A stretch of DNA of 64,000 nucleotides, from assembly GCF_022846255.1 (NCBI RefSeq), contig NZ_AP025682.1, one strand, 5' to 3'. The position numbers and the translations under genes are program-made. Shown here in pieces: positions 9,668-40,995 of the stretch (position 1 is its first letter; the number at the start of each line of letters is the position of its first letter). The notes under the pieces were generated by a model. The model did no database searches. It was not told the origin of the DNA and saw nothing but the letters and a program-made list of their open reading frames with translations. Origin of the DNA: Escherichia coli. Its GTDB lineage: Bacteria; Pseudomonadota; Gammaproteobacteria; Enterobacterales; Enterobacteriaceae.

Positions 9668-9744
9668 GTAGGACGGATAAGGCGTTTACGCCGCATCCGG
9701 CAACAGATGCCTGATGCGACGCTACCGCGTCTTATCAGACCTAC
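9668..9744. repeat. REP elements downstream of ybiJ
   Basis: gtaggacggataaggcgtttacgccgcatccggca and gcctgatgcgacgctaccgcgtcttatcagacctac. Confidence 0.85.
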
Positions 9745-28987: not shown

Positions 28988-29977
28988 TTAGCCACCAATG
29001 TACGATAAGTTTTGCGTAATACCGGTGTTATTTTGATGCAGGAAATGGGTCTGTTTTTTCTCCCGCAGCGCCGCTGAAATACGCGCTTCCAGCGCCTGTT
29101 GCTGGGTATCGTCTTCCAGCAGATCGCGCAGGTTAACGCCGCCTTCACCAAACAGGCAGAGATGGAGTTTACCAATGGAGGAAACGCGCAGGCGGTTGCA
29201 AGTGGCGCAGAAGTCTTTTTCATACGGCATGATAAGGCCAATCTCTCCGGCGTAATCCGGATGACAAAAGACTTGCGCGGGACCGTCGCTGCGTTGACGT
29301 AATTGGTGGATCCAGCCGCGACGCAGTAGCTCGTCACGCAGAACCTGACCAGAGATGTGATGCTTACGGAAGAGCTCGCTGCCCTCGCCCGTTTCCATCA
29401 ATTCGATGAAACGCAGCTGGATAGGGCGATGCTGGATCCAGTTCAGAAAGGTGTCGAGCTGATGATGATTAACATCACGCATCAGCACGGTATTGACTTT
29501 GACCTTCTCAAAACCGGCCTCAAATGCAGCATCGATTCCTGCCATGACCTGGTTGAATTTATCCTGCCCGGTAATGGCATGAAACTGGCGAGCGTCAAGG
29601 CTATCAACGCTGACGTTGATGCCAGTAAGTCCAGCATCGCGCCAGTTCGCCACATCGCGTTCCAGACGGTAACCATTGGTGGTGACCGCAATCTGGCGGA
29701 TAGCGTCGTTTTCCCGCACAGCGGCGATGATATCGGTAAAGTCGCGGCGTAAAGATGGCTCACCGCCCGTCAGACGGACTTTTTCGGTGCCAAGACTGGC
29801 GAAGGCGCGCGTAACCCGGCGAATTTCATCGACGGTAAGAAAGCCTTTATTGGTGACGCCGCTCGGTTTGTAGCCATCCGGCAGGCAGTAGGTGCAACGA
29901 AAGTTACACACATCGGTAATCGACAGGCGCAAGTAGTAAAACTTACGCGCAAATGCATCAGTCAGTTGTGAAGCCAT
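28988..29977 (-). CDS. moaA: GTP 3',8-cyclase (radical SAM)
   Basis: ORF track 28988-30058; 329 aa from [31 protein letters not shown] (CxxxCxxC radical SAM motif). Confidence 0.96.
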
Positions 29978-29979
29978 GT

Positions 29980-30125
29980 ACACCTTTCCAGATACGGGAG
30001 GCGAAGTCATTTCTTCCTTCGCCCTGGTGGCAATCTTTACAAGCATTGTCACGGCCAAAGCACCGTATCAGTTGACCCAGGTGCAGAGGCTAGAGTGTTT
30101 AGTGGTTAAGCCGATACTAGCGTGT
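29980..30125 (-). promoter_or_regulatory. moaA 5' leader; expected location of the Moco riboswitch RNA motif
   Basis: Long GC-structured leader directly upstream of moaA; assigned from known biology of the E. coli moaA leader, boundaries approximate and not folded. Confidence 0.5.
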
Positions 30126-37563: not shown

Positions 37564-37603
37564 TAGACTCGTAAACCTAAATCTTTTCAATTTGGTTTAC
37601 AAG
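37564..37603. promoter_or_regulatory. bio operator (BirA binding site) in the divergent bioB/bioA control region
   Basis: Imperfect palindrome ctcgtaaacc-taaatcttttcaattt-ggtttacaag matches the known bioO except one arm position. Confidence 0.85.
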
Positions 37604-37609
37604 TCGATT

Positions 37610-38899
37610 ATGACAACGGACGATCTTACCTTTGACCAACGCCATATCTGGCACCCATACACATCCATGACCTCCCCGCTGCCGGTTTATCCGGTGGCAA
37701 GCGCCGAAGGTTGCGAGCTAATTTTGTCTGACGGCAGACGCCTGGTTGACGGTATGTCGTCCTGGTGGGCGGCGATCCACGGTTACAATCACCCGCAGCT
37801 TAATGCGGCGATGAAGTCGCAAATTGATGCTATGTCGCATGTGATGTTTGGCGGTATCACCCATGCGCCCGCCATTGAGCTGTGCCGCAAATTGGTGGCA
37901 ATGACGCCGCAACCGCTGGAGTGCGTTTTTCTCGCGGACTCCGGCTCCGTAGCGGTAGAAGTGGCGATGAAAATGGCGTTGCAGTACTGGCAGGCCAAAG
38001 GCGAAGCGCGCCAGCGTTTTCTAACCTTCCGCAATGGTTATCATGGCGATACCTTTGGCGCGATGTCGGTGTGCGATCCGGACAACTCAATGCACAGCCT
38101 GTGGAAAGGCTATCTGCCAGAAAACCTGTTTGCTCCCGCCCCGCAAAGCCGCATGGATGGCGAATGGGATGAGCGTGATATGGTGGGCTTTGCCCGCCTG
38201 ATGGCAGCGCATCGTCATGAAATCGCGGCGGTGATCATTGAACCGATTGTCCAGGGCGCAGGCGGGATGCGCATGTACCATCCGGAATGGTTAAAACGAA
38301 TCCGCAAAATGTGCGATCGCGAAGGTATCTTGCTGATTGCCGACGAGATCGCTACCGGATTTGGTCGTACCGGCAAACTGTTTGCCTGTGAACATGCAGA
38401 AATCGCGCCGGATATTTTGTGTCTCGGTAAAGCCTTAACCGGCGGCACAATGACCCTTTCCGCCACGCTCACCACGCGCGAGGTTGCGGAAACCATCAGT
38501 AACGGCGAAGCCGGCTGCTTTATGCATGGGCCAACTTTTATGGGCAATCCGCTGGCCTGCGCAGCAGCAAACGCCAGCCTGGCGATTCTTGAATCTGGCG
38601 ACTGGCAGCATCAGGTGGCGGCTATTGAAGCGCAGCTACGCGAGCAACTTGCCCCCGCCTGTGACGCCGAAATGGTTGCCGATGTGCGCGTACTGGGGGC
38701 AATCGGCGTGGTCGAAACCACTCGTCCGGTGAATATGGCAGCGCTGCAAAAATTCTTTGTCGAACAGGGTGTCTGGATCCGGCCTTTTGGCAAACTGATT
38801 TACCTGATGCCGCCCTATATTATTCTCCCGCAACAGTTGCAGCGTCTGACCGCAGCGGTTAACCGTGCAGTGCAGGATGAAACATTTTTTTGCCAATAA
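37610..38899 (+). CDS. bioA: adenosylmethionine-8-amino-7-oxononanoate aminotransferase
   Basis: ORF track 37499-38899; 429 aa from ATG at 37610 ([20 protein letters not shown]). Confidence 0.96.
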
Positions 38900-38957
38900 C
38901 GGGAAGTCAGCGTGAGGGTTTCTGGCTACACTTTCTGCAAACTAGAAAGGAGGGTTC

Positions 38958-39434
38958 ATGAAACTCATCAGTAACGATCTGCGCGATGGCGATAAGCTGC
39001 CGCATCGTCATGTCTTTAACGGCATGGGTTACGATGGCGATAATATTTCACCGCATCTGGCGTGGGATGATGTTCCTGCGGGAACGAAAAGTTTTGTTGT
39101 CACCTGCTACGACCCGGATGCGCCAACCGGCTCCGGCTGGTGGCACTGGGTAGTTGTTAATTTACCCGCTGATACCCGCGTATTACCGCAAGGGTTTGGC
39201 TCTGGTATGGTAGCAATGCCAGACGGCGTTTTGCAGACGCGTACCGACTTTGGTAAAACCGGGTACGATGGTGCAGCGCCGCCGAAAGGCGAAACCCATC
39301 GCTACATTTTTACCGTTCACGCGCTGGATGTAGAACGTATTGATGTCGATGAAGGTGCCAGCGGCGCGATGGTCGGGTTTAACGTTCATTTCCACTCTCT
39401 GGCAAGCGCCTCGATTACTGCGATGTTTAGTTAA
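38958..39434 (+). CDS. ybhB: PEBP/RKIP-family (kinase inhibitor-like) protein YbhB
   Basis: 158-aa ORF with PEBP motifs (YDPDAPT..., GxHRY). Confidence 0.92.
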   Translation: MKLISNDLRDGDKLPHRHVFNGMGYDGDNISPHLAWDDVPAGTKSFVVTCYDPDAPTGSGWWHWVVVNLPADTRVLPQGFGSGMVAMPDGVLQTRTDFGKTGYDGAAPPKGETHRYIFTVHALDVERIDVDEGASGAMVGFNVHFHSLASASITAMFS

Positions 39435-39585
39435 TCACTCTGCCAGATGGCGCAATGCCATCTGGTATCACTTAAAGGTATTAAAAACAACTTTTTGTCT
39501 TTTTACCTTCCCGTTTCGCTAAAGTTAGTATAAAAAAGCAGGCTTCAACGGATTCATTTTTCTATTTCATAGCCCGGAGCAACCT

Positions 39586-40869
39586 GTGAACACATTTTCA
39601 GTTTCCCGTCTGGCGCTGGCATTGGCTTTTGGCGTGACGCTGACCGCCTGTAGCTCAACACCGCCCGATCAACGTCCTTCTGATCAAACCGCGCCTGGTA
39701 CCTCTTCTCGCCCGATTCTGTCGGCAAAAGAAGCGCAGAATTTCGATGCTCAACACTATTTTGCATCCCTGACACCAGGTGCGGCAGCGTGGAATCCTTC
39801 CCCGATTACCCTGCCTGCGCAACCTGACTTTGTTGTCGGCCCGGCGGGTACTCAAGGTGTAACGCATACCACGATTCAGGCGGCGGTAGATGCGGCAATT
39901 ATCAAGCGTACCAACAAGCGCCAGTATATTGCCGTGATGCCTGGTGAGTATCAGGGAACGGTATATGTCCCTGCCGCTCCGGGTGGAATTACTCTGTACG
40001 GTACAGGTGAAAAACCGATTGATGTGAAGATTGGGCTTTCCCTTGATGGGGGCATGAGCCCTGCCGACTGGCGTCACGACGTCAACCCGCGCGGCAAATA
40101 TATGCCAGGTAAACCAGCGTGGTATATGTACGATAGCTGCCAGAGCAAACGCAGCGACAGTATCGGCGTTCTCTGCTCTGCGGTCTTCTGGTCACAAAAC
40201 AATGGACTGCAACTGCAAAACCTGACCATCGAAAACACGCTGGGCGATAGCGTAGATGCGGGTAACCATCCGGCGGTGGCACTGCGTACTGATGGTGACC
40301 AGGTACAGATTAACAACGTTAACATTCTCGGTCGTCAGAACACCTTCTTTGTCACCAACAGCGGTGTGCAGAACCGTCTGGAAACGAATCGTCAGCCGCG
40401 TACGCTGGTGACCAACAGCTACATTGAAGGGGATGTGGATATCGTTTCTGGTCGCGGCGCAGTGGTGTTCGATAACACCGAATTCCGCGTGGTGAACTCC
40501 CGTACCCAGCAAGAAGCGTATGTGTTTGCACCGGCTACGCTGTCCAACATTTACTACGGTTTCCTCGCCGTAAACAGCCGTTTCAATGCTTCCGGTGATG
40601 GCGTGGCGCAACTGGGCCGCTCGCTGGATGTTGATGCCAATACCAACGGTCAGGTAGTGATCCGTGATAGCGCCATCAACGAAGGTTTTAACACGGCCAA
40701 ACCGTGGGCCGATGCGGTGATCTCAAATCGTCCGTTTGCGGGTAACACCGGCAGCGTTGATGATAAAGACGAAATACAGCGCAATCTGAATGACACTAAC
40801 TACAACCGCATGTGGGAATACAATAACCGCGGCGTGGGTAGCAAAGTGGTTGCAGAGGCGAAGAAGTAG
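39586..40869 (+). CDS. ybhC: pectinesterase-fold outer-membrane lipoprotein YbhC
   Basis: 427-aa ORF, lipoprotein signal peptide (LTACSS), pectin methylesterase-like motifs. Confidence 0.92.
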   Translation: MNTFSVSRLALALAFGVTLTACSSTPPDQRPSDQTAPGTSSRPILSAKEAQNFDAQHYFASLTPGAAAWNPSPITLPAQPDFVVGPAGTQGVTHTTIQAAVDAAIIKRTNKRQYIAVMPGEYQGTVYVPAAPGGITLYGTGEKPIDVKIGLSLDGGMSPADWRHDVNPRGKYMPGKPAWYMYDSCQSKRSDSIGVLCSAVFWSQNNGLQLQNLTIENTLGDSVDAGNHPAVALRTDGDQVQINNVNILGRQNTFFVTNSGVQNRLETNRQPRTLVTNSYIEGDVDIVSGRGAVVFDNTEFRVVNSRTQQEAYVFAPATLSNIYYGFLAVNSRFNASGDGVAQLGRSLDVDANTNGQVVIRDSAINEGFNTAKPWADAVISNRPFAGNTGSVDDKDEIQRNLNDTNYNRMWEYNNRGVGSKVVAEAKK

Positions 40870-40884
40870 GAGCTGTTAACTATG

Positions 40885-40995
<111 letters not shown>

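Follow-up and report, generated by a model that had tools for sequence, protein, structure and literature searches.

The ybhB-ybhC interval of Escherichia coli: a probable stress gene, the lambda attB site and a separate lipoprotein gene

Introduction

In Escherichia coli K-12, the biotin gene bioA is followed by ybhB (b0773), which encodes a PEBP-family protein, and by ybhC (b0772), which encodes an outer-membrane lipoprotein of family CE8; between the two lies the attachment site of phage lambda, attB (attλ, BOB'), located between gal and bio. The same interval is considered here in a 64,000-nt stretch of E. coli DNA (contig NZ_AP025682.1 of assembly GCF_022846255.1), referred to below as the window, in which ybhB and ybhC are the known K-12 genes. 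Much about them is already available: gene identities, both crystal structures, the puzzle of their function, gene order, the location of attB and, in public tables, the dependence of ybhB on RpoS, the sigma-S factor.

The interval is best read as three separate units, not as one biotin-linked operon, and we put the probability of this reading at about 0.7, taken as a whole: ybhB with a promoter of its own, attB, and a separate ybhC. A preliminary description had the coordinates, strand, spacing, gene identities and folds right, as borne out by the list of open reading frames (ORFs), profile searches and matches to PDB entries. It treated ybhB and ybhC as a single item; the gene calls stand, and the lambda attB site between the two genes was missed. 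Two small points should matter to specialists, namely a sigma-S-type box conserved directly after bioA over the 80 Enterobacteriaceae species examined and the position of the attB core inside a conserved block linked to ybhC. In a literature search that had RegulonDB and EcoCyc outside its scope, we have not seen either the cross-genus conservation of the box or the nesting of the attB core described; both are modest refinements.

A Sigma-S-Type Box Between bioA and ybhB

The proposed ybhB promoter, GCTACACTT, lies only 26 nt past the bioA stop codon and contains the hexamer TACACT (38927-38932) with C at position -13. Of 85 related loci, 84 have the -10 box, placed 23-37 nt before the start codon amid diverging flanks. 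The heptamer CTACACT occurs upstream of ybhB in 46 exact copies and in 32 with one mismatch (TTACACT, CTAAACT, CTATACT, GTACACT), and the sequence on either side of it is wholly different among genera. Aligned at the box, 40 non-redundant sequences show no variation at T(-12), A(-11), C(-8) and T(-7); 28 of them have C(-13), 38 have G or A at -14 and 30 have T(-6), and the remaining positions carry only 0.05-0.4 bit. The search pattern itself forces part of this profile, for which an unanchored k-mer count provides the unbiased control. In that count, TACACT is the top hexamer, present in 28 of 36 non-redundant spacers, compared with 13 of 36 for the Shine-Dalgarno hexamer AAGGAG.

The extended -10 consensus of sigma-S is given as KCTAYRCTTAA and also as CTATACT (PMC5650638). 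At the GCTACACTT site, GCTACACTTTC fits 9 of the 11 positions of KCTAYRCTTAA, including C(-13) and C(-8), and no recognisable -35 element accompanies it. The ybhB box shares with known sigma-S promoters both the consensus and the RpoS dependence, and differs from them in its closeness to an upstream gene on the same strand. Its conservation suggests that it acts as a promoter, and ybhB most likely has its own stress promoter within the 58-nt spacer.

Published tables show that ybhB depends on RpoS. In Salmonella in late stationary phase in LB medium, the mean ybhB count falls from 88 in the wild type to 19 when rpoS is mutated (ratio 0.21, adjusted P of 5e-6), and that of bioA, at 9 and 14, does not differ significantly (PMC4014581, Datasets S1 and S2). 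In mRNA counts, ybhB exceeds the longer bioA about 10-fold (PMC4014581 tables). In E. coli K-12, the comparison of wild type and rpoS mutant gives adjusted P values for ybhB of 4.8e-4 at stationary-phase entry, 7.3e-4 at high osmolarity and 6e-12 in the cold, in a table that reports significance without direction and in which many genes are significant in the stationary-phase test (PMC10654073, Table S1). For bioA, the same study has no rpoS difference in stationary phase or cold and no value for osmolarity (PMC10654073). In an older array comparison, ybhB is co-induced with the sigma-S genes osmC, yciEF, yjbJ and dsrB.

The box also keeps its place when other genes intervene. Buttiauxella, Phytobacter and Cedecea have a 226-residue DJ-1/PfpI-family gene between bioA and ybhB, and Erwinia rhapontici has there a CurA-type NADPH curcumin/enone reductase gene (571 bits against a cut-off of 440) together with a DJ-1/PfpI gene. 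In all genera with insertions, a -10-like box precedes the first inserted gene, directly after bioA, which is how a promoter serving the entire post-bioA unit would behave. Such DJ-1/PfpI and CurA neighbours hint at a link of YbhB to carbonyl or electrophile stress.

Several points weigh against a sigma-S promoter of ybhB, in addition to the forced profile and the undirected K-12 statistics mentioned above. The CTACACT box is absent in Pantoea. A scan with the sigma-70 consensus finds no promoter in either spacer, that is, upstream of ybhB or of ybhC; sigma-70 promoters and intrinsic terminators were sought in both, none was found, and the matches within coding regions are at chance level. No start site of ybhB was seen, the supplements of sigma-S chromatin immunoprecipitation sequencing and of SMRT-Cappable-seq containing none of ybhB, ybhC and bioA. 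The RpoS dependence of ybhB could be indirect. Finally, adjacency to bioA is invariant over at least 80 species, which is unexplained if the regulation of the two genes is unrelated.

Read-Through from bioA and RNA-Level Alternatives

The preliminary description had concluded from the short distance and the common strand that ybhB is probably co-transcribed with bioA. In its fullest form, this view makes ybhB the distal gene ("ORF1") of the BirA-regulated leftward bioA transcript, biotin-responsive and with a role tied to biotin synthesis, which we consider unlikely. The 1988 sequence paper on the bio operon by Otsuka et al. reportedly has an ORF downstream of bioA in the leftward transcript; in the literature searched, co-transcription of bioA and "ORF1" brought up only strain genotypes or irrelevant papers.

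Spacing and gene order are what such a transcript has in its favor. A scan of the 58-nt spacer finds no terminator-like site, its fold z-score of -1.6 is not significant, and the Shine-Dalgarno sequence of ybhB is strong; because no terminator is present, read-through from bioA into ybhB is possible. The adjacency of bioA and ybhB holds in 80 of 80 Enterobacteriaceae species loci retrieved with YbhB as the query, with a constant bioB-bioA-ybhB arrangement, and extends to Pantoea and to relatives in which YbhB is 68% and 59% identical. Set against this are the dependence of ybhB, and not of bioA, on RpoS, the roughly 10-fold excess of ybhB over bioA counts in biotin-replete LB medium, the conserved -10 box inside the spacer, and the insertion in several genera of DJ-1/PfpI and CurA genes with the box ahead of them. 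In a dataset in which bioA, bioB and bioC rise 11-, 13- and 33-fold, ybhB is not among the changed genes, which is weak negative evidence as regards biotin responsiveness, and recombineering strains with a ybhB-bioAB deletion are described only as biotin auxotrophs through the loss of bioAB.

The preliminary description had named an independent ybhB promoter as the finding that would speak against co-transcription, and the conserved box together with the RpoS data largely amounts to that finding; the regulatory inference was probably wrong in emphasis.

Downstream, an 11-bp G+C-rich hairpin without a clear U-tract begins 6 nt past the ybhB stop codon. In each of 83 distinct orthologous sequences, ybhB is followed by a strong hairpin, so that the gene likely ends a transcription unit, and the hairpin of the window is likely the 3' end of its transcript. 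In the arrangement that we favor, the spacer promoter GCTACACTT would be the main driver of ybhB and would account for its general-stress, RpoS-dependent behaviour, read-through from the BirA-repressed bioA promoter would be a minor input when biotin is replete, and the hairpin would likely close the unit. The gene is better treated as a member of the RpoS general-stress response than as a passenger of the biotin operon, and that response is the place to seek its function.

Alternatively, CTACACT could be an RNA-level signal, such as a processing site, a determinant of the bioA 3' end or an element of a structure governing the translation of ybhB. This is very improbable. The invariant positions are those of a -10 hexamer (T-12, A-11, T-7) together with C-13 and C-8, which are specific to sigma-S; whichever gene comes first in the post-bioA unit, the box goes with it; and an RpoS-dependent ybhB beside an unchanged bioA demands a promoter of its own. 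In many lineages, the T-rich run that follows the box is able to pair with the purine-rich Shine-Dalgarno sequence, the missing start site of ybhB would suit an RNA signal, and a perfect 14-bp palindrome is present in one genus (see below). A general hairpin that sequesters the Shine-Dalgarno sequence and silences read-through was nonetheless rejected: the folding of 34 non-redundant ybhB leaders does not surpass that of dinucleotide-shuffled sequence (mean z = -0.26). Nor does any known RNA family match the spacers in Rfam at E up to 1.

The palindrome is found in Kluyvera (four loci, L060, L068, L082 and L083), where CTCCTTTGTTAATC/GATTAACAAAGGAG covers the Shine-Dalgarno sequence of ybhB with a fold z of -6.7. 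A few other leaders also stand out in the fold test, and sequences of the form TTAATCAG..ATTAA, akin to this palindrome, are present in Klebsiella, in Pseudocitrobacter and in one more distant relative (L089). The Kluyvera-type palindrome could be a genus-specific operator or a translational hairpin.

In the two loci whose YbhB is 68% and 59% identical (L089 and L090), the bio genes appear as many short fragments beside an intact ybhB, with hut genes downstream. The fragmentation could reflect genome decay in a symbiont or errors of long-read assembly; given the latter possibility, no meaning was read into the survival of ybhB beside broken bio genes.

Lambda attB and the Block Linked to ybhC

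The 15-bp common core of lambda attB, GCTTTTTTATACTAA, lies in the spacer between ybhB and ybhC. The location of attB here is textbook knowledge and is the most notable feature of the interval. The core is the same as at the described attλ, with ybhC on the gal side and ybhB on the bio side. The B arm equals that of K-12, and the B' arm has one substitution next to the core, C to A at 39521, which turns CAAGTTAGT into AAAGTTAGT; no more than 766 of 5083 E. coli genomes have the exact 61-nt variant with A at 39521. In most other genera the B' arm reads CAACTTAGT, which is also the phage-side sequence where attL forms the junction in O157.

No prophage occupies the site in this window. Among 5424 complete E. 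coli genomes, ybhB-ybhC is intact in 3486 and split in about 1938 (~36%). The break is sharply defined: 39539 is the last position of the ybhB half and 39522 the first of the ybhC half, leaving 18 bp (39522-39539; query positions 143-160) on both halves. The occupant was examined in one split genome, that of the O157:H7 strain Z1766, where a 38.6-kb lambdoid prophage sits at attB, with int and xis adjoining ybhC and with phage arms at each junction. Over the int-xis-attP region it shows 98.5-99.6% identity to phages 434, HK97 and 2B8, whose records label the site "identical to lambda att site core". The spacer contains the attB site of lambda, 434 and HK97, at which ybhB and ybhC are parted in about one third of E. 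coli strains.

At the bio-side end of the Z1766 prophage (L004:3373-5697), nleD and nleH1-1, which encode type III effectors, lie just beyond attR. In strain UPEC957C (NZ_CM149646.1), the ybhB-ybhC spacer holds, instead of a prophage, an insertion of about 1.3 kb with an InsQ/TnpB-family RNA-guided endonuclease.

The attB core is contained in a longer block of about 39 bp, CTTCCCGTTTCGCTAAAGTTAGTATAAAAAAGCAGGCTT, which is conserved before ybhC in every genus that has the gene. The motif CTTCCCGTTTCGCTCAAC-TTAGTATAAAAA(A)GC is present in 25 of 25 loci with ybhC, with the core 42-49 nt before the start codon (61 nt in one), and the remainder of the ybhC leader is not conserved. The block stays with ybhC also where 0.3-4.6 kb separate that gene from ybhB, as in Kluyvera and others, and the attB core is absent from loci without ybhC. 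Only in a minority of genera does ybhC follow ybhB; Citrobacter, Salmonella, Klebsiella and most Enterobacter have no ybhC within 6 kb.

This distribution suggests that the block is probably the promoter or operator of ybhC, which would be transcribed on its own. Compared by eye, the block gave no convincing fit to sigma-70, sigma-E, NagC, PhoP or Rcs-type sites. In Salmonella Typhimurium 14028, the hut operon lies between ybhC, which is next to pgl, and ybhB, and ybhC is mildly higher, 2.5-fold, in the rpoS mutant (PMC4014581, Dataset S1). This is the opposite of the effect on ybhB and again suggests that the two genes are independently regulated.

A link of the block to ybhC would explain a conservation of attB sufficient for phages to target it, and lambda-type phages may use the block for that reason. 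If the core is central to a ybhC promoter or operator, lysogeny by lambda-like phages, seen in about one third of the strains of E. coli, would rewire the expression of the YbhC lipoprotein. A more ambitious proposal joins both spacers: ybhB would anchor a conserved sigma-S module after bioA, which in some genera includes a DJ-1/PfpI glyoxalase or deglycase and a CurA NADPH ene-reductase, the PEBP protein would help to defend against reactive carbonyls or electrophiles, and the attB core would be central to the ybhC promoter or operator. As a package, this is speculative and quite unlikely.

YbhC, a Lipoprotein with an Altered Active Site

YbhC matches the Pfam family Pectinesterase (PF01095) in part (residues 195-338; 52 bits against a cut-off of 27) and the NCBIfam equivalog NF007822 with 733 bits against a cut-off of 436. 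It is identical at 397 of 399 aligned residues (99.5%) to PDB entry 3GRH, the differences being F336S and N393K in precursor numbering, and by this match it has CE8's right-handed parallel beta-helix fold. The lipobox and the motifs HPAVAL, RQNT, DIVSG and LGRSL are the same in the K-12 protein.

The N-terminus, MNTFSVSRLALALAFGVTLTAC-SS, carries a signal peptide with a lipobox that reads L(T/S)AC-SS in 28 of 28 orthologues. Under the +2 rule of Lol sorting, a residue other than Asp at +2 directs a lipoprotein to the outer membrane; here +2 is Ser.

The closest active enzymes are pectin methylesterases (PMEs) of the PemB type, among them PemB of Dickeya, itself an outer-membrane lipoprotein, and the PME of the rice weevil (PDB 4PMH) is a further relative. 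With the PemB equivalog YbhC reaches 408 bits, short of the cut-off of 700, and it aligns with 4PMH over its full length (E = 8e-60). The beta-helix fold and the lipoprotein N-terminus are shared with PemB and 4PMH, and the catalytic Asp of the QDT motif is lacking in YbhC. The start of 4PMH, DQTAPGTASRPILTA, is nearly identical to mature YbhC at DQTAPGTSSRPILSA (residues 33-45, window 39682-39720; DQTAPGT.SRPIL). An origin of the insect PME gene from an enterobacterial lipoprotein gene of the PemB/YbhC type would be consistent with this resemblance.

Active-site positions were read from an alignment with 4PMH and 8TMS (Table 1). The residue roles given there are in part as reportedly described by Fries in 2007. 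The full PME catalytic set comprises two Gln, the Asp of QDT, the nucleophile Asp and the Arg, and YbhC lacks part of it. The sequence GRQNT, with Asp replaced by Asn, occurs in 28 of 28 YbhC orthologues, and the change of the first oxyanion-hole Gln to Pro is confined to Escherichia. For Pme8A, the active-site residues quoted are Asp139, Asp182 and Arg255.

The loss of the general acid/base Asp (Asn252 in YbhC) argues that YbhC is not a PME. Most likely it is an envelope binding protein, or a hydrolase of much reduced or altered activity, and not a cytoplasmic acyl-CoA thioesterase; in evolutionary terms it would be a PemB-derived outer-membrane lipoprotein that keeps the nucleophile Asp and the Arg.

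Whether YbhC is a real envelope esterase or thioesterase that acts on an ester other than pectin, as the RefSeq name "putative acyl-CoA thioester hydrolase" has it in part, is the question on which the enzyme reports differ. According to a later paper that cites it, the screen of Kuznetsova (2005) found palmitoyl-CoA thioesterase activity for YbhC, which runs counter to the assignment preferred here; as summarised in a later paper, Eklof et al. (2009) found YbhC without activity on pectin or palmitoyl-CoA. The CE8 fold, the retained Asp285 and Arg345 and the conservation of the protein and its lipobox in several genera fit an esterase. The general acid/base position, Asn in all 28 orthologues, does not, nor do the additional changes of Gln to Pro and Trp to Leu in Escherichia, and an outer-membrane lipoprotein, as the lipobox indicates, would be kept apart from cytoplasmic acyl-CoA. 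On balance such an esterase is possible, if doubtful.

The preliminary description had deduced from the pectinesterase fold, in an organism that does not degrade pectin, that YbhC has a different ester substrate. This is an existing hypothesis; the fold supports it, and the change of QDT to QNT across the orthologues and the reported failure in esterase assays weaken it. A non-catalytic or strongly altered function appears at least as likely.

YbhB and the Layout of the Locus

YbhB matches the Pfam family PBP/PEBP (PF01161; E of 3e-42, 144.6 bits against a cut-off of 24), the NCBIfam equivalog NF007609 (343 bits against 226) and the YbhB/YbcL subfamily TIGR00481 (195 bits against 58). It is identical at 156 of 158 residues (98.7%) to PDB entries 1FJJ and 1VI3, with L84M and I125V as the differences, and has by these matches the PEBP fold. 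Its translation contains CYDPDAPTG and GETHRYIF, that is, the DPDAP and HRY motifs; DPDxP and GxHR/HRY form the anion pocket in PEBP structures. No signal peptide is present, as befits a cytoplasmic member of the family, in which YbhB is a paralogue of the periplasmic YbcL. The K-12 protein has the same length, likewise no signal peptide and the same place after bioA, with no substantive difference. The RefSeq label "kinase inhibitor" is an annotation carried over from mammalian RKIP; no experiments on kinase inhibition by a bacterial YbhB were found in the literature searched. YbhB is thus viewed as a putative cytoplasmic ligand-binding protein of the PEBP fold.

The 5-kb stretch around ybhB and ybhC is 99.2% identical to E. 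coli chromosomes, in which the gene order is bioB (opposite strand), bioA, ybhB, ybhC and ybhJ (opposite strand). The ORF list has a longer bioA frame from 37499, and the annotated start corresponds to window position 37610. The bioA-ybhB spacer counts 58 nt, or 59 by simple subtraction of coordinates, and the ybhB-ybhC spacer 151 nt.

Table 1. Features in and around the ybhB-ybhC interval (window positions unless a locus is named; +, strand shown)
Feature	Position	Strand	Basis or remark
bioO, presumed BirA operator with divergent bio promoters	37565..37606		sequence, alignment with K-12 and O157
bioA coding sequence	37610..38899	+	annotation in the 99.2%-identical genome
bioA-ybhB spacer	38900..38957	+	no terminator-like hairpin plus T-run
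GCTACACTT, sigma-S-type -10 element, proposed ybhB promoter	38925..38933	+	cross-genus conservation
ybhB Shine-Dalgarno sequence AGGAGG	38948..38953	+	4 nt before ATG
ybhB, 158 residues, ATG start	38958..39434	+	ORF list, profiles, PDB match
Hairpin after ybhB, likely 3' end of transcript	39441..39467	+	see text
Block CTTCCCGTTTCGCTAAAGTTAGTATAAAAAAGCAGGCTT, probable ybhC promoter/operator, contains attB	39507..39545		conserved before ybhC
Lambda attB common core	39525..39539	-	exact match, single in window, 0 expected by chance
ybhC Shine-Dalgarno sequence GGAG	39576-39579	+	upstream of GTG start
ybhC, 427 residues, GTG start	39586..40869	+	ORF list, profiles, PDB match
YbhC signal peptide and lipobox L19-T20-A21-C22, Ser at +2	39586..39651	+	translation
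Oxyanion-hole Gln of PME QQAVAL; HPAVAL in YbhC	40270-40272		Gln to Pro229
General acid/base Asp of PME HQDT; RQNT in YbhC	40339..40341	+	Asp to Asn252
Nucleophile Asp of PME DFVFG; DIVSG in YbhC	40438-40440		Asp285 kept
Arg and substrate-binding Trp of PME LGRAW; LGRSL in YbhC	40618-40620 (Arg)		Arg345 kept, Trp to Leu347
Genes inserted between bioA and ybhB in other genera	L074:5305-5985, L069:5309-5989, L087:3265-4988	same as bioA	tightly packed

Upstream of bioA lies what we take, from the known E. coli bio operator, to be bioO (Table 1). Any biotin-regulated read-through into ybhB would come from this operator and its bio promoters. Its left half-site has T to C at 37570, reading CTCGTAAACC here and CTTGTAAACC in K-12 and O157; the change, also present in the closest genome, 2014C-3338, weakens the inverted repeat with GGTTTACAAG and could cause slight derepression of the bio operon in this lineage.

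On the other side, a cluster of repetitive extragenic palindromic (REP) sequences, a bacterial interspersed mosaic element (BIME), lies between the convergent ybhC and ybhJ (40878-40988) and explains about 22 BLAST matches per genome, which fall at query positions 1986-2020. The 64-kb window has two Rfam matches only, a molybdenum-cofactor riboswitch (29965-30109, minus strand, 103 bits) and naRNA4, a REP-derived nucleoid-associated RNA (9671-9741, plus strand, 73 bits).

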